Numbered from the stretch's first letter, positions 11,704 through 17,944 are shown. The stretch is 64,000 nucleotides of DNA from Bacilli bacterium (GCA_045119035.1 JBGVCU010000037.1:3301-67300), one strand, 5' to 3'. Numbers and translations are program-made. Notes: generated by a model not told the origin, from the sequence alone.

Positions 11704-13479
11704 ATGTTAAAACTTGAAAGAATAAAAGAAGAATTAAAACTTGTACCAAAAAAACCTGGTAGTTATCAAATGTATGATAAAAACAACCAAATCATTTATG
11801 TTGGTAAAGCTAAGAATCTTGCGAATCGATTAAAGAGTTATTTTACTGGTTCACATGATGCCAAAACAACAAGGATGGTTCAAGATGTTGAGTATTTTAA
11901 ATACATTATAACTTCCTCAGAACTAGAAGCACTATTATTAGAACTTAACCTAATAAAAGAAAATAGACCTAAATATAATATCATGTTAATGGATGATAAA
12001 ACATATCCATATATTATGATAACAAATGAAACCCATCCTCGAATTATATCTACACGAGATGTTAAAAAAAGAACAAAAAAAGATTTAATATTTGGACCAT
12101 ATCCAAATGCAAAAGCATGTAAAGATACTGTTGAAATATTAAATAAAGTATTTCCTTTTAGAAAATGTAAAACAATTCCTAAAAAATCTTGTTTATATTA
12201 TGATATGGGACAATGTCTTGCTCCATGTATTAAAAAAGTAGATAAAGATGAATATAAAGAATATATCTTACAAGTATCAAAATTTTTAAATGGAAATAAT
12301 AAAGAATTACTTGATCTATTAAAAAATAAAATGGAACAATATTCAATGAATCTTCAATTCGAAAAAGCTTTAGAATATCGTGACATTATTAATAATATCG
12401 AATCATCAATTCTAAAATCACAAAAAATGAAACTAAGTGACGGAATTGATAGAGATATATTTGGTTATTCAATTAAAAATGATATTATGAATATTCAAGT
12501 ATTCCATATGCGTAATGGTTCTATCATTGAAAGAAATGGTGAAGTATTTGATTTAGTTGATAGTGTAGATGAAATGTTAGTTTCATATATATGTCAATTT
12601 TATCAAAATCTTGAAGTAATACCTCCAAAGGAAATCTTAATTCCATATATTGAAGATACATCACTTATCGAACAAGTAATTAATAAGAAAGTAATTATTC
12701 CTATTAAAGGGCTTAAAAAACAATTAGTAGATTTAGTTTGTGAAAATGCATCTAATAATTTAGAAAATCTTCACAAGAAAAAACTATCACAAATAAGTAA
12801 AACTACAGAACCTTTAGTAGAACTTAGTAAATTACTTGATATTGAGTATCCTAAAGTAATAGAAACATTTGATAACTCAAATATTCAAGGAACTTCAAGC
12901 GTATCAGCAATGGTTACATATATAGATGGAGTTAAATCGCCAAAAGATTACAGAAAATATAAAATCAAAACAGTAATTGGTGCAGATGATTATCATACTA
13001 TGAATGAAGTAATCACTCGTAGATATAAAAGACTTAAACAAGAAAATTTACCACTACCAAATTTATTAATTGTTGATGGTGGAATTCCACAAGTAAAAGC
13101 AGCGCTAAATGCACTTAAAGATATTGATGTAAAATTAAATGTTATGGGACTTGCTAAAGACGATAAACATCGAACAAGAGCAATTATAACAAGCGATCTA
13201 AAAGAAATTAATATTGATAAAAGATCGATGCTATTTTTACTACTTGAATCAATTCAAGATGAAGTACATCGATTTGCTATTACATTCTTTAGAAATACTC
13301 ATACAAAAAATACTTTTGCATCAAGCTTAGATGAAATAGAAGGTATTGGAAAAAATAGAAAAAAAGTTTTACTAGAAAACTTTGATTCAATAGAAGACAT
13401 TAAAAATGCAACAGTTGATAAATTAAAATCACTAGGAATGCCAACTGATGTAATAAATAATATCAAAGAAAAACTTTAA
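11704..13479 (+). CDS. uvrC: excinuclease ABC subunit C
   Basis: 591 aa; N-terminal GIY-YIG (YQMYDKNNQIIYVGKAKNL), UvrBC-interaction region, C-terminal HhH. Confidence 0.8.
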   Translation: MLKLERIKEELKLVPKKPGSYQMYDKNNQIIYVGKAKNLANRLKSYFTGSHDAKTTRMVQDVEYFKYIITSSELEALLLELNLIKENRPKYNIMLMDDKTYPYIMITNETHPRIISTRDVKKRTKKDLIFGPYPNAKACKDTVEILNKVFPFRKCKTIPKKSCLYYDMGQCLAPCIKKVDKDEYKEYILQVSKFLNGNNKELLDLLKNKMEQYSMNLQFEKALEYRDIINNIESSILKSQKMKLSDGIDRDIFGYSIKNDIMNIQVFHMRNGSIIERNGEVFDLVDSVDEMLVSYICQFYQNLEVIPPKEILIPYIEDTSLIEQVINKKVIIPIKGLKKQLVDLVCENASNNLENLHKKKLSQISKTTEPLVELSKLLDIEYPKVIETFDNSNIQGTSSVSAMVTYIDGVKSPKDYRKYKIKTVIGADDYHTMNEVITRRYKRLKQENLPLPNLLIVDGGIPQVKAALNALKDIDVKLNVMGLAKDDKHRTRAIITSDLKEINIDKRSMLFLLLESIQDEVHRFAITFFRNTHTKNTFASSLDEIEGIGKNRKKVLLENFDSIEDIKNATVDKLKSLGMPTDVINNIKEKL

Positions 13480-13488
13480 TATATATTT

Positions 13489-13516
13489 CACTTATACTCA
13501 CTTTATGCATAATATA
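13489..13516 (+). promoter_or_regulatory. sigma-K-type promoter upstream of gerE (AC-16-CATAATATA)
   Basis: AC at 13490-13491, 16-nt spacer, CATAnnnTA match at 13508-13516. Confidence 0.35.
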
Positions 13517-13536
13517 AAACGAGGAGTGAAAGATTA

Positions 13537-13746
13537 GTGAAAAGTAATAGGTTTTTAACCTCAAGAGAACTTGAAATCTTTGAACTTTTAGTTAAAAAAT
13601 ATGATACAGATATGATTGCTGAAAAACTTCATATAAGTAGTAAAACAGTAAGAAATCATATATCTAATGTTATACAAAAACTAGATGTAAAAGGAAGAAG
13701 CCAAGCTATCTTAGAACTTATAAAAATGAATGAACTAAAATTATAG
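13537..13746 (+). CDS. gerE: sporulation transcription regulator GerE (LuxR-type HTH only)
   Basis: 69 aa; close match along its length to B. subtilis GerE (…SKTVRNHISNVIQKLDVKGRSQAILEL…); GTG start 10 nt after RBS GAGGAG. Confidence 0.75.
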   Translation: MKSNRFLTSRELEIFELLVKKYDTDMIAEKLHISSKTVRNHISNVIQKLDVKGRSQAILELIKMNELKL

Positions 13747-13760
13747 AAAGGAGATAAAAT

Positions 13761-14672
13761 ATGCAGGTTATATACGGTAAAATCAGAACAGTAGATGAAG
13801 ATCAAAGAATTATTAGTTTACTAAGAAATAATAAAATAGAATACTTTTATTTAAGCAGAAACCAAATGAAGCGTTATAGCCCATATTTATCTGCCGGTCT
13901 ATATGTTTATTTTAGATGTACAGATAATAAGAAAAAACATCATCATATATATTCTTATGATGTAATTTCATTTATTAAAATGGCAAGAAGAACAAGAAGA
14001 AAACTTCTTGTATATTATGATATTGATACTATTAAAGAAGGGGTAGTAAATTTACTAAACAAAGAACATAATAGAATGTTTTTAGATTTAGAATTTACAA
14101 TGCCACCATTTAACTATACAAAACAAAGTGGAAAAGAATTTATTCCTGAAATTATTCAATATGGAATATATATTGAAAACAAAGATGGAGAACTTCTTGA
14201 TTGTGATTCTCATTTAGTAAAACCACTCGATCAAAGTGGAATCAATTCAAGAACATTACAATTCTTACATATCGGACCTACTCAAATGAGAAAAGCGGTA
14301 AGTTTTAGAGAATTCTATCATAATTTAAAATACTTTATGGATTTATATAATTCAGTTATATATGTATGGGGAAAAAATGATATGAGTGTACTTGATAAAT
14401 CATATCAAATGCATAACTTAAAACCAATAACAAAAAGAAAAGATTTTATTAATTTAATGCAAGTAATTAAAAATTATTACAGTATTAAAGATGATATCGG
14501 ACTTTTTAAAACAGTAGAATGGTTTGAAGAAAGAAAAATCAAAGAACCACAAGAACATGATGCACTTGATGATGCATATATGACAATGAAAGTATTCCAT
14601 TTATTTAAAAATGAAATAACAAATAATCATTTTAAATTAACAAAACCTAATAAGAAAAATAAGCTAGATTAA
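13761..14672 (+). CDS. DEDDh 3'-5' exonuclease (KapD/DnaQ-like) with an uncharacterised N-terminal domain of about 110 aa
   Basis: Exo I motif FLDLEFT, Exo III motif HDALDDAY; 14 nt after gerE, with a strong RBS AAGGAGA; its own terminator downstream. Confidence 0.6.
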   Translation: MQVIYGKIRTVDEDQRIISLLRNNKIEYFYLSRNQMKRYSPYLSAGLYVYFRCTDNKKKHHHIYSYDVISFIKMARRTRRKLLVYYDIDTIKEGVVNLLNKEHNRMFLDLEFTMPPFNYTKQSGKEFIPEIIQYGIYIENKDGELLDCDSHLVKPLDQSGINSRTLQFLHIGPTQMRKAVSFREFYHNLKYFMDLYNSVIYVWGKNDMSVLDKSYQMHNLKPITKRKDFINLMQVIKNYYSIKDDIGLFKTVEWFEERKIKEPQEHDALDDAYMTMKVFHLFKNEITNNHFKLTKPNKKNKLD

Positions 14673-14686
14673 TTTCTAGCTTTTTA
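14660..14686 (+). terminator. terminator at the 3' end of the exonuclease gene
   Basis: AAGCTAGA-ttaatt-TCTAGCTT + TTTT. Confidence 0.7.
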
Positions 14687-14768
14687 AATTAAATAAGTAT
14701 ATTAAATTATCATTATTAGAATATTGTATATAAAATTTGAAATAATATATGTATAAAATAGAAAAGTA

Positions 14769-14880
14769 TTAGAAAACCCTTGAATAATTAAAGCAAAAAC
14801 ATTGGAAAACCCGATATTTTATGTTATAATATTATTGGAAAACCCGATATTTTATATCAAAAAATTATTGGAAAAACCGA
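14769..14880 (+). repeat. four phased direct repeats (TTrGAAAACCCGATATTTTAT core), 33-bp period
   Basis: Copies begin at 14769, 14802, 14835, 14868; copies 2 and 3 are identical over 22 nt; they overlap the -35, the +1 region and the 5'UTR of the ATPase gene. Confidence 0.8.
14802..14830 (+). promoter_or_regulatory. sigma-A-type promoter of the AAA+ ATPase gene (TTGGAA-17-TGtTATAAT), embedded in the direct-repeat array
   Basis: -35 lies inside repeat 2; extended -10 at 14822-14830. Confidence 0.45.
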
Positions 14881-14892
14881 AAGGAAAAAAAC

Positions 14893-16209
14893 ATGTATTA
14901 TAGAAAAATTGAAAAAAAATTATATGATTACTATAATAATCAAGATTCTAAGATTTTCATCATAAATGGAGCTAGACAAATTGGGAAAAGTTTTATAATT
15001 AGAGAAACAGCTTCAAAATATTTTAAAAATTATATTGAAATAAATTTAATGGATGATTATAATTCAAATCAGTATTTTAAAAACATTAAAACTACTAAAG
15101 AATTTTATTTACAATTAAGTGCTTTGCATGGTGATAAAATTAATAACATTGAAGACACAATCATTTTTTTAGATGAAATACAAATATATCCGCATCTTAT
15201 TTCACTTTTAAAATCACTTAAAATAGAAAATAAATATCGTTATATTGCAAGTGGATCTTTACTTGGTATAACTTTAAAACATATTTTCATTCCAATGGGA
15301 AGTATTGAAGAAATTAAAATGTATCCAATGGATTTTGAAGAGTTTTTATATGCTAACAATATTGGTAAAGACATCATAGAATATTTAAAAAATTGCTTTG
15401 ATAATCAAGAAAAAGTAAGTGACAATATTCATATGTTTATGTTAAGTAAGTTTAAAGAATATTTAATATGTGGAGGATTACCTGACTCTGTCAAAGAATT
15501 TGTAACAAATAAAAATGTTTTTCGTACAAGAGATAATCAAAATATTACATTTGAATATTATAAAGATGATGCTGCACAATATGATGCTCTTCATAGATTA
15601 AAAATTCGTAGATTATTTGAATTAATGCCTTCATATATGGAAAATAAAGTCAAAAGAGTAAAGTTTAAAGATATTGAAAACATTGAGGATTCTAATTTAA
15701 AAAAATATCAAGATGAATTTGATTATTTAATATATTCAGGATGTGCTTTAGGAGTTAAAGCTATATCAAACCCTAAATTTCCTTTATTGGAATCCAGCAG
15801 CAAAAACTTAATTAAATTATATTATAATGATGTTGGTATTTTAACAAATATTTTATATAGAAATAATATTAATGCCATATTAAATGTGGAAAAATCAGTT
15901 AACTTAGGTTCTGTATATGAAACAGCAGTTGCAATGGAGTTAATTGCTCATGGACATGAATTGTATTATTTTGATAGTAAAAAGGTTGGAGAAGTAGATT
16001 TTTTAATTAATGATTATGATAATTTATCTGTTATTCCGGTAGAAATCAAATCTGGAAAAGATAAATATGAATTTAGAGCCATCCCTAAACTTATAGATAA
16101 AGAAGGAAATTATAAACTAAACCATGGATATATATTTTCAAATAATAATATATGCAATTTTGAAAATGACTTATATTCATATCCAATTTATATGATTATG
16201 TTTATTTAA
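14893..16209 (+). CDS. AAA+ ATPase (AAA_14/COG1373) with C-terminal DUF4143 PD-(D/E)xK nuclease-like domain
   Basis: Walker A GARQIGKSF, Walker B IIFLDEIQ; C-terminal VGEVDFLI…PVEIKSGK fits a D…E-x-K nuclease signature. Confidence 0.65.
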   Translation: MYYRKIEKKLYDYYNNQDSKIFIINGARQIGKSFIIRETASKYFKNYIEINLMDDYNSNQYFKNIKTTKEFYLQLSALHGDKINNIEDTIIFLDEIQIYPHLISLLKSLKIENKYRYIASGSLLGITLKHIFIPMGSIEEIKMYPMDFEEFLYANNIGKDIIEYLKNCFDNQEKVSDNIHMFMLSKFKEYLICGGLPDSVKEFVTNKNVFRTRDNQNITFEYYKDDAAQYDALHRLKIRRLFELMPSYMENKVKRVKFKDIENIEDSNLKKYQDEFDYLIYSGCALGVKAISNPKFPLLESSSKNLIKLYYNDVGILTNILYRNNINAILNVEKSVNLGSVYETAVAMELIAHGHELYYFDSKKVGEVDFLINDYDNLSVIPVEIKSGKDKYEFRAIPKLIDKEGNYKLNHGYIFSNNNICNFENDLYSYPIYMIMFI

Positions 16210-16218
16210 TAATATATT

Positions 16219-16251
16219 AAAATACCATCCGTATTAAACGGATGGTATTTG
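16219..16251. terminator. bidirectional terminator (ATPase / rnj convergent)
   Basis: AATACCATCCGT-attaa-ACGGATGGTATT. Confidence 0.85.
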
Positions 16252-16252
16252 T

Positions 16253-17944
16253 TTATTCAATTACATTAATAATAGGAAGTATTACAGGGTATTTTTCTGT
16301 AACTTCATATATATATGGTTTTAATGTTTGGATTAATGTATTTTTTAGTCCATTAATATTTAATGTTTTTTGTTTCATTAAAGCATTTTTAAAGTTTGTA
16401 TTTGCTCTATCTAATATTAAATTAATGATTTGTTTTGTTTCTTCAACTTGAGTATCTGCAAATCCTTTAGTAATAATTTGAGTATCAGCTCTTGTTTCTT
16501 TTTTCTTATTAATTGTAAAAATTAAAGAAACAAAACCTTCATCAGCAAGAATTTTTCTTTCTTTTAATATTGATGAATCAACATCTGATAAAGAGTTATC
16601 TAGATATATATCATTAGCATATACACCTTTTTTAATTACTCTTGGACCATTTTCATTAAATGCTAGAACATCTCCTGCATTAAGCGCAAAACAATTTTCA
16701 CGTGGAACATCCATTTGTACAGCAACATTGATATGAGACTTTAACATTGCGTATTCACCATGTACTGGCATAAAGTATTTTGGTCTTATTAATGAGAACA
16801 TTAATTTAATTTCTTCTACAGAAGCATGTCCTGTAGTATGAGTACCTGTTAATACGTTATTACTAATTACACGTGCACCACTTTTGATAAGTTGGTTAAC
16901 ATTTCTATTAACAAATTGTTCATTACCAGGAATTGGTTTACTCGAATATATAATAGTATCATTAGGCATTAATTTAATTTGTTTATGGGTACCATTTGCA
17001 ATTCTAGAAAGTGCAGCAAGCGGTTCACCTTGAGAACCTGTACATAAAATTGTTACATTTTCTAAATTCTTGTGTTTATTATATTCTCTTGCTGTAATGA
17101 TTGTTCCTTGTGGAACATTAATATATTTTAATTTAGACGCAACATCAATTGTTTTTTCCATGCTATGACCAAATACAATTACTTTTCTATTAGTTGCGTG
17201 ACTTGCTTGAATAATTTGTTGTACACGATATACGTTAGATGCGAATGTTGCAACAATTATTCTTCCTTTTGTAGTTTGGAATAAATCCATTAAATTATGT
17301 CCAATTTTCTTTTCTGATAAAGAAAAATTAGTAATCATTGCATTAGTACTATCAGCAAGTAAACATAGAACACCTTCATGACCAAGTTTTGCCATCTTGT
17401 AGTAATCAGCTCTATCTCCAATTGGTGTAAAGTCAAATTTAAAGTCACCAGTATTTACAATATATCCAAGTCTTGTTTTAATAGCAAGTCCAAATGAATC
17501 AGGAATTGAGTGATTTGTTCTAAAGAATGATACTTGGAAGTTACGATATTTATAAATTGTATCATCATTGAATTCTTCTAAATTATACTCTATATCAGGA
17601 TATTCAGCTAATTTGTTTTTAATTAAACCAACTGCAATACCTGATGCATAGATAACAGGAATTTTAACATCTCTTAATAAGAATGGAATACTACCAATAT
17701 GATCTTCATGACCATGGGTAATAAATAAACCAACAATTTTACGTTCGTTTTCTTTTAAATACTTAAAATCAGGAATGATATAGTTAACACCGTGTTCATC
17801 TCCACCAGCAAATAGAATTCCAGAATCCATTATTAAAAGTTCATTTCCAACTTCAACTACATATATATTCATCCCAACAACACCAAGTCCACCAAGGGAA
17901 AAGATTTTTATATCTGGTAGTTTATATTTTTTCTTTTTATCCAT
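16253..17944 (-). CDS. rnj: ribonuclease J
   Basis: Metallo-beta-lactamase HGHEDH motif plus beta-CASP/RNase J C-terminal domain; likely starts at the second Met (MDKKKK, preceded by AAAGGAGGA) rather than the track start at 17959. Confidence 0.85.
   Translation of the reverse strand: MDKKKKYKLPDIKIFSLGGLGVVGMNIYVVEVGNELLIMDSGILFAGGDEHGVNYIIPDFKYLKENERKIVGLFITHGHEDHIGSIPFLLRDVKIPVIYASGIAVGLIKNKLAEYPDIEYNLEEFNDDTIYKYRNFQVSFFRTNHSIPDSFGLAIKTRLGYIVNTGDFKFDFTPIGDRADYYKMAKLGHEGVLCLLADSTNAMITNFSLSEKKIGHNLMDLFQTTKGRIIVATFASNVYRVQQIIQASHATNRKVIVFGHSMEKTIDVASKLKYINVPQGTIITAREYNKHKNLENVTILCTGSQGEPLAALSRIANGTHKQIKLMPNDTIIYSSKPIPGNEQFVNRNVNQLIKSGARVISNNVLTGTHTTGHASVEEIKLMFSLIRPKYFMPVHGEYAMLKSHINVAVQMDVPRENCFALNAGDVLAFNENGPRVIKKGVYANDIYLDNSLSDVDSSILKERKILADEGFVSLIFTINKKKETRADTQIITKGFADTQVEETKQIINLILDRANTNFKNALMKQKTLNINGLKNTLIQTLKPYIYEVTEKYPVILPIINVIE

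Follow-up and report, generated by a model that had tools for sequence, protein, structure and literature searches.

The question raised by this locus is why four direct repeats, phased at 33 bp, lie across the promoter of a gene encoding an ATPase fused to a nuclease-like domain, and which protein reads them. The window analyzed is a stretch of 64,000 nucleotides from a Bacilli bacterium (GCA_045119035.1, JBGVCU010000037.1:3301-67300), with a G+C content of 26%. When both of its strands were searched with the pattern TTrGAAAAmCC, matches were found only at 14769, 14802, 14835, and 14868, spaced by exactly 33 bp. The chance expectation was 0.25 matches, and four matches were reached in none of 100 shuffled sequences. 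The 21-mer TTGGAAAACCCGATATTTTAT occurred twice (14802 and 14835) against an expectation of 0, and Tandem Repeats Finder reported a period of 33 across 14801 to 14880. The pattern search and the repeat finder therefore bear out the four phased copies and the start positions described in an earlier note on this DNA. Sequence comparison likewise confirmed that copies 2 and 3 are identical over 22 nt (ATTGGAAAACCCGATATTTTAT); over the full 33 nt their identity is 88%. Copy 3 looks like a recent 33-bp duplicate of copy 2 in which the -10 box has decayed. Metagenome data contained the four-copy array unchanged on four other contigs of this species. The features of the locus are listed in Table 1.

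Table 1. Coordinates of features at the ATPase-nuclease locus, counted from the first letter of the window
Feature	Position	Strand	Remarks
Gene for GerE/LuxR-type protein, 69 aa	13537-13746		Two genes upstream of the ATPase gene; GerE-family helix-turn-helix
Terminator-like hairpin	14661-14682	+	Ends the KapD-like exonuclease gene upstream; left edge of the transcription unit
Putative operator copy 1 (tATTAGAAAACCCtt)	14767-14781	+	Upstream of the promoter; core position 1 is A, not G
Putative operator copy 2 (cATTGGAAAACCCGA)	14800-14814	+	Includes the -35 hexamer TTGGAA (14802-14807)
Extended -10, TGtTATAAT	14822-14830	+	17 bp past the -35; placement of the -10 conserved among loci
Putative operator copy 3 (tATTGGAAAACCCGA)	14833-14847	+	Spans the putative transcript start
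Putative operator copy 4 (tATTGGAAAAACCGA)	14866-14880	+	In the 5' UTR; adjoins the ribosome-binding site AAAGGAA (14880-14886)
AAA_14 + DUF4143 ATPase-nuclease (predicted), 438 aa, member of PADLOC PDC-S01	14893-16209	+	Pfam and PADLOC profiles
Walker A, GARQIGKS (residues 26-33)	14968-14991	+	G26, G31, and K32 invariant in 41 diverse homologues
Walker B, IIFLDEIQ (residues 90-97)	15160-15183	+	D94 invariant; E95 in 40 of 41 homologues
Basic loop and N terminus of helix 269-281 (residues 252-271)	15646-15705	+	Putative DNA-reading element
PD-(D/E)xK-type core (residues 339-416)	15907-16140	+	E343, D369, E384, K386; helix-strand-strand-strand-helix-strand
Terminator-like hairpin, 13 pairs	16220-16250	+	Ends the ATPase-nuclease gene; lies between it and the convergent RNase J gene

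To the right of the array, the domain order predicted from sequence motifs was recovered with both Pfam cutoffs exceeded: AAA_14 matched residues 19 to 152 with 80.1 bits (cutoff 27; E value 1.9e-22) and DUF4143 matched residues 225 to 388 with 79.2 bits (cutoff 28.1; E value 3.6e-22). The motifs GARQIGKS, IIFLDEIQ, VGEVDFLI, and PVEIKSGK were all found in the translation of the open reading frame. Against the PADLOC profiles, the protein matched PDC-S01 (PDLC04792; AAA_14 plus DUF4143, COG1373) from end to end, with residues 1 to 438 aligned to profile positions 1 to 433 of 452 at an E value of 1.3e-148. No NCBIfam model matched the ATPase, and no Rep-family match was present among its Pfam results. 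The D...E-x-K pattern that had suggested a nuclease-like C terminus proved to be part of a conserved E...D...ExK motif: among the 41 diverse homologues, E343 was present in 41, D369 in 39, E384 in 41, and K386 in 40, a pattern consistent with a PD-(D/E)xK-type nuclease. K254 and R255 were nearly invariant in the same set.

A full-length AlphaFold2 model, built with 35 homologues as input, reached a mean pLDDT of 84. It contains an ATPase domain (residues 1 to 155), a helical domain (159 to 250), and a helix-and-hairpin unit (269 to 330), and the nucleotide-binding and helical domains have the fold of the P-loop AAA+ and STAND-ORC-like ATPases. In the C-terminal part, E343 lies on helix 339-352, D369 on strand 366-374, and E384-x-K386 on strand 379-385. 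Because the model of the C-terminal domain alone was poor (pLDDT 49), the predicted nuclease fold was assigned from the motif, its topology, and classification in Pfam and the literature, in which DUF4143 is listed as a member of the PD-(D/E)XK superfamily (PMC3424549). Foldseek comparison of the full-length model with the PDB returned only generic AAA+, STAND, ORC, and RFC matches, those to the ATPase dominating. Searches of PDB sequences with the single protein and with a profile gave nothing meaningful, and when the two protein halves were scanned against Pfam at E values up to 10, DUF4143 was the sole match. Confidence in the model is lowest (pLDDT below 50) in the segment of residues 251 to 270, which includes residue 266. 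Residues 266 to 271 form the N terminus of helix 269-281, which is followed by a beta-hairpin, and they would thus be placed where a helix-turn-helix reads bases. Judged only by the order of its secondary-structure elements, the segment might be described as part of a winged helix.

To the left of the gene, a TTGGAA-17 bp-TATAAT promoter match with TG ahead of TATAAT spans 14802 to 14830, and the transcript would start near 14837. Taking the start to lie there, the array covers the -35 hexamer, the extended -10, the transcript start, and the 5' UTR, as the earlier note had proposed. The ATPase gene is flanked by terminator-like hairpins on both sides and therefore forms its own independent transcription unit. 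Its neighbors are housekeeping genes (infB, rbfA, uvrC, rnj, and def), with no defense island. The same promoter geometry was found in other loci of the family. In 23 of 33 loci, the first G of GGAAAA (G1) precedes the start of the -10 box by 21 nt, which identifies TTGGAA as the -35 hexamer with a spacer of 17 bp. In 25 of 33, exactly one copy lies beyond the promoter copy, spanning the region from the start site as far as the ribosome-binding site; in the window there are two, apparently because of the recent duplication of copy 2 into copy 3. One locus (L029) retains two -10-like boxes. In some Bacteroidota loci, the array is placed differently relative to the promoter.

The array is not restricted to this contig. 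Homologues with 75 to 77% identity were located in unrelated contexts (after rpiB, after metK, and next to pckA), and each was preceded by TTrGAAAAACCG in two to four copies spaced by 33 bp. Scanning a single genome for each species yielded 66 loci, 63 of them with a full-length gene. For these, the self-repeat distance was scored over the 240 bp upstream of the gene, with random segments of the same locus as controls. The best distance was 33 bp in 46 loci, 32 bp in 11, and 64 to 66 bp in 3, so that 60 of 63 loci, at 30 to 77% protein identity and with unrelated neighbors in several phyla, repeat at 32 to 33 bp or at double that distance. The median upstream score was ∼17, compared with a control mean of 1.4, and the copy number ranged from two to five per locus. 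The 32- to 33-bp layout was also kept upstream of six plasmid homologues of 26 to 50% identity from five other phyla (Acinetobacter, Vibrio, Collinsella, Fusobacterium, Segatella, and Criblamydia) and upstream of the homologue from Agathobacter rectalis. Among distant loci from IMG/VR, an array was found in 38 of 66, while among 231 controls a repeat was called in one, at 35 bp; roughly one in three of the very distant IMG/VR homologues lacked a clear array, as did one Segatella copri paralogue. A metagenome scan added little, as nearly all of its loci were at least 94% identical to loci already in the set. Array and ATPase thus travel as a unit through varied genomic contexts, as had been conjectured, and the array is a hallmark of the gene family rather than a local oddity. 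Within a species the position of the locus is fixed. No empty site was found; wherever the KapD-like neighbor was present on a contig of this species, the ATPase gene was present as well.

A search for further copies, covering ∼300 kb of flanking DNA, found the motif nowhere but in the upstream array when both strands were read, both in 30 loci (∼4 kb around each) and in the 64-kb window; the motif is confined to the array and not scattered. An Rfam scan of positions 13400 to 16600 at E values up to 1 returned only a chance plastid match and no relevant family. A CRISPR-like array and a structured RNA were rejected on this basis and because the upstream copies precede the promoter; for a CRISPR-like array, there are also merely two to five units, each made up of a 15-bp core and an 18-bp spacer.

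Within the repeat unit, conservation is unevenly distributed. In a logo of 54 copies of the motif class found in the window, positions -4 to +11 were conserved (tATTGGAAAAaCCGa), while the next ∼17 to 18 bp of the unit, the spacer, were unconserved. Such a division into conserved block and free spacer is the mark of a (putative) binding site rather than of duplicated DNA in decay. Many clades share the 5' half of the unit (TTGGAAAA), and the 3' half varies by clade, reading CCG, CAC/CCA, TCC, GTGT, CGGACAAAA, CGGGTCA, or GTTGCAAAAA. Proteobacteria, Fusobacterium, Prevotella, and Criblamydia have wholly different operator words. Two paralogues on one contig, 38% identical to each other, were preceded by GCAC and CCGGACAAAA arrays, respectively, and the pair was found again in a second genome. 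The motifs of two paralogues on one replicon of Segatella copri DSM 18205 also differed, while members of one clade in different hosts shared a motif. To judge from these arrays, the motif follows the protein and not the host.

Which part of the protein the motif follows was indicated by covariation. When 36 proteins of >50% identity were scored for the mutual information between alignment columns and motif class, the peak fell at residues 251 to 280, with column 266 at the top, and this column was the best predictor of operator class among the 438 alignment columns. Asp at position 266 was paired with CCG in 20/20 loci, Asn with CA in 9/9, and Lys with TCC in 3/3. Arrays reading GTGT were paired with His, Glu, or Gly at 266, usually together with a basic residue at 267 to 269 (Arg in L029, L048, L046, L085, L051, L083, and L113; Lys in P0067). 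After collapse at 85% identity, residue and class matched in 26 of 26 clusters, a result reached by none of 100,000 permutations. On a tree built without residues 248 to 275, the motif class switches at least 9 times and residue 266 switches 9 times, and the mapping of residue to class stays perfect. In the window, the codon for D266 occupies 15688 to 15690, and the residue tracks operator bases 8 to 10.

Operator classes were also predicted for four proteins, the predictions being fixed before the DNA was retrieved, and three of the four held. For P0054 (residue N; nearest known class CCG), the array GGAAAACCAC was read as CCAC, and for P0114 (residue N; nearest known class TCC), the array GGAAAAACAC was read as ACAC; both belong to the CA class, as predicted. 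For P0082 (residue D; nearest known class CCG), the array GGAAAAACCGG was read as ACCGG, matching the predicted CCG class. The fourth, P0080 (residue N; nearest known class CCG), had copies reading CCAG, CCTT, and ACTG, which are not CCG; here agreement was partial. Two other proteins, each of a new class and without a prediction, had arrays reading GTGTA (P0067, residue Q) and GTGCA (P0074, residue R). All six loci had three to four copies, 32 to 33 bp apart.

We consider it probable, on balance, that the repeats are putative operators of the downstream gene's own product and serve negative autoregulation of its promoter. In our reading, the array would be bound by the protein encoded next to it, with the gene's own promoter most likely being repressed. 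Each site would consist of a conserved block of ∼15 bp (tATTGGAAAAmCCGa) and a free spacer of ∼18 bp, with a multimer of the AAA_14-DUF4143 protein binding one block per 33 bp. Reading would be carried out by the basic loop and helix N terminus (residues ∼252 to 271), with residue 266 contacting operator bases 8 to 10. With the -35 hexamer inside one site and the putative transcript start and 5' UTR spanned by the one or two sites that follow, a bound protein should silence the promoter of its own gene and could hold a predicted ATP-dependent PD-(D/E)xK nuclease at a fixed, low level. The overlap with the -35 hexamer argues for repression and would also be compatible with activation or with a nontranscriptional role. 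In their fixed register with the promoter across loci, the repeats appear to behave as the phased operators around a promoter that had been suggested for this locus. The fast divergence of the operator words fits an insulation of co-resident paralogues from one another.

Four other explanations were weighed; one retains some weight, and the other three conflict with the data. The first, which is unlikely but deserves to be taken seriously, accepts that the protein reads its own array and assigns the array a different main purpose, either as a platform for assembly or parking, at which the nuclease would be licensed or restrained, or as the site of a self-mobilizing single-gene cassette, in a homing-like or transposon-end-like manner. 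It would account for the fusion of a nuclease domain to the reader, for operator specificity that diversifies fast, as for iterons under incompatibility, and for the finding that gene and array stand alone as an insertion in many contexts that are unrelated to each other and often of a housekeeping kind. In five loci, moreover, flanking host sequence is directly duplicated around the cassette (97 bp plus further rpiB fragments in L005; 88 bp in L074; 22 to 30 bp in L009, L031, and L015). These duplications, however, vary in length and were seen in just 5 of ∼57 loci, the position of the locus is fixed within species, and in 30 loci neither the 3' end of the gene nor any other place within ∼4 kb yielded a further copy of the motif on either strand. 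A transcriptional operator requires just such a constant register with the -35, the -10, and the ribosome-binding site. A two-ended transposon of the Tn7 or Mu type was rejected, as no distal or inverted copies of the motif were present in the 30 loci or in the 64-kb window.

A bolder proposal, which we regard as speculative, is that PDC-S01 genes are self-recognizing single-gene cassettes and that the array is a self-mark with a role beyond setting expression. The array would be identified through the fast-evolving readout (D266, CG; N266, CA; K266, TCC). Such a mark could separate the cassette's own DNA from foreign DNA or direct its insertion and maintenance, and the latter would explain the scatter in housekeeping loci with duplicated flanks.

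That the repeats are operators of another regulator, such as the GerE/LuxR-type neighbor or a general host factor, is very improbable. The presence of a gene for a GerE-family helix-turn-helix protein close by had made this neighbor a candidate in the earlier note, and many transcription factors typically target phased direct repeats. Across six phyla and dozens of contexts, arrays are nevertheless kept beside the ATPase gene where no GerE gene adjoins it, two paralogues within a single genome differ in motif, and the motif covaries with a residue of the ATPase; the upstream GerE-like protein was accordingly set aside as the regulator. A comparison by eye of the GerE consensus with the repeat gave no fit.

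Just as hard to sustain is the view that the array is a functionless by-product of slippage or unequal crossing-over, in which a promoter unit of 33 bp was duplicated and its copies are decaying. Copies 2 and 3 do look recently duplicated (22 nt identical, with the -10 of copy 3 decayed), the copy number varies from two to five among loci, and L029 has two -10-like boxes. Yet the pitch is kept from 77% down to 26% protein identity although the sequence has been replaced, conservation is blockwise, distinguishing core from spacer, and the core covaries with the protein. Duplication accounts for changes in copy number and not for the retention of the cores. Least probable of all is an iteron function, in which the repeats would serve a replication or partition element and the ORC/Cdc6-like ATPase would be its initiator. 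Most loci are chromosomal, single, and set among housekeeping genes and terminators, and no Rep, Par, or mobilization genes accompany them. The resemblance to initiators is of the general kind that the ATPase fold brings with it, and the domain fused to it is a predicted nuclease and not a helicase loader.

The preferred reading, an enzyme that represses its own promoter through a phased array, has partial parallels. Among AAA+ initiators, autoregulation occurs in archaeal Orc1/Cdc6, with its origin recognition boxes, and in DnaA, with boxes in its own promoter. The locus in the window differs from both in having no origin or replication context, in its effector, a predicted nuclease, and in its boxes, which are strictly direct repeats at a pitch of 32 to 33 bp wrapped around the promoter. 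Plasmid iterons typically have a pitch of ∼22 bp and form part of the origin. The iteron/Rep systems are similar in that direct repeats at fixed helical phase lie next to the gene of the (putative) binding protein, in self-regulation, as proposed here, and in a fast divergence of specificity that limits cross talk between co-resident copies; they differ in that the loci described here are mostly chromosomal, have a pitch of 33 bp, and lack a Rep fold or an origin. Of the STAND-type ATPases compared (MalT and the archaeal ATPases PABY2304 [2qen] and SSO1545 [2fna]), MalT is an activator of other operons through a C-terminal LuxR-type helix-turn-helix, whereas the proposed target of the protein in the window is its own promoter and its C terminus is nuclease-like. 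The C proteins of restriction-modification systems, BrxR, and CapW hold potentially toxic defense genes under operator control at their own promoters. The regulator RptR is reported to act likewise (PMC12255303). All of these regulators are separate small helix-turn-helix or WYL proteins, while here the enzyme itself seems to be the regulator and the operator is a multicopy phased array.

The PDC-S01 family, an ATPase fused to a PD-(D/E)xK domain, ranks among the most frequent defense candidates in PADLOC-based surveys, as the fourth commonest across prokaryotes, still unvalidated, and in another survey it was the most frequent single locus in rumen genomes (PMC12988326, PMC13356809). The papers found use PDC-S01 as an annotation label only and give no function, validation, cis element, or 33-bp array, and our literature search returned no functional study of the PDC-S01/DUF4143 family and no mention of the repeats; this agrees with the view that the family is widespread yet functionally uncharacterized. 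What appears to be new is a cis element that recurs across an abundant uncharacterized family and comes with an apparent, readable rule linking protein and DNA.

For PDC-S01, these results provide the first concrete handles: a conserved cis element, a putative DNA-reading residue with an apparent recognition rule, and the design of a probably autoregulatory promoter. If the protein is indeed a sequence-specific DNA binder, the possible modes of control of the predicted nuclease are narrowed, and a D266N swap should reprogram its operator specificity. Paralogues appear to be insulated from each other through their diverging operators. The gene may defend against phages, and its repression may be tight owing to the toxicity of the nuclease. 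The native upstream region probably shuts the gene off, which matters when that region is used in defense tests. Should the cassettes prove to be self-recognizing, they would represent a novel type of element, selfish or immune, and a naturally occurring collection of protein-operator pairs orthogonal to one another.

The putative operators upstream of the family's ATPase genes differed in their internal architecture. In loci from Acinetobacter and Vibrio (L081, L082 and L138) and Fusobacterium (L084), every 32-bp unit contained a palindromic core, either TTTTATGCGCATAAAA or ATGTGAsTATAmTCACAT, whereas the Firmicute units were asymmetric. The palindromic cores suggest that some branches of the family bind one dimer per unit. 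Within the CCG class, defined by operator bases CCG as in the window, the copy adjoining the ribosome-binding site was often TTAGAAAA and not TTGGAAAA (window locus, L005, L009, L013, L014, L026 and L030), and last copies accounted for six of the eight A-for-G variants found in these arrays. The A-for-G change in the last copy could weaken a spurious -35 element or tune affinity.

Some genomes carried several family members. The 167-kb replicon of Segatella copri DSM 18205 (L220 to L223), which is rich in defense-type genes (Qat, NACHT, WYL, DUF262, and toxin-antitoxin), encoded three intact members and a fourth, 5'-truncated copy that was unannotated. Different 33-bp arrays were found upstream of two members on this replicon, while the member at 144505-145854 had no 33-bp array and was preceded by other short repeats of the GGAGTTAAG type. 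A single Prevotella metagenome-assembled genome contained two paralogues that were 97% identical (L072 and L073) and had in common the unusual operator word TTAATCGTGGATTTGTG at a 33-bp spacing. L072 and L073 are recent duplicates whose putative specificity has not yet diverged.

The window's copy of the ATPase gene had housekeeping genes as neighbors. The gene pair listed below lies immediately 3' of uvrC and was present in all contigs of the window's species; its exonuclease has an N-terminal extension of approximately 100 aa. The small open reading frame at 16242-16451 is almost certainly not a real gene.

Features neighboring the ATPase gene in the window
Feature	Position	Strand	Length (aa)	Description
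GerE/LuxR-type helix-turn-helix gene	13537-14672 (pair)		69	First of the pair
KapD-like DEDDh 3'-5' exonuclease	13537-14672 (pair)		303	Second of the pair, 15 bp after the GerE/LuxR-type gene
Open reading frame	16242-16451	+	69	Runs antisense to the RNase J gene at its 3' end; hydrophobic, low-complexity

Elsewhere, defense or mobile genes adjoined some homologues (L083, L082, L136 and L132), with an AbiE toxin-antitoxin beside the Collinsella homologue, CyaB/MazG and an integrase fragment beside the Vibrio homologue, and an SLFN-like helicase and a transposase helix-turn-helix gene among the other neighbors. Relatives of the protein were encoded by 144 stretches in predicted viral contigs (IMG/VR; L140 to L219) and also in several human-fecal GenBank records titled "Bacteriophage sp." (H26 to H38). 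Bacilli- or Lachnospiraceae-like copies occurred on contigs titled Escherichia coli, Bacteroidaceae, and Prevotella sp. (L024, L042 and L074; G+C content of 36% for L024 and 31% for L042), and these three bins probably hold misassigned contigs.

In five loci, the ATPase cassette (gene plus array) was flanked on both sides by duplicates of host sequence in direct orientation. In L005, the duplicate was a 97-bp stretch from the 3' end of rpiB (upstream, -257 to -161; downstream, +282 to +378 relative to the gene), with two additional rpiB fragments on the downstream side. The duplicate was 88 bp in L074 and 22 to 30 bp in L009, L031 and L015, where it spanned terminator hairpins. These flanking duplications hint at how the cassette may have been inserted.
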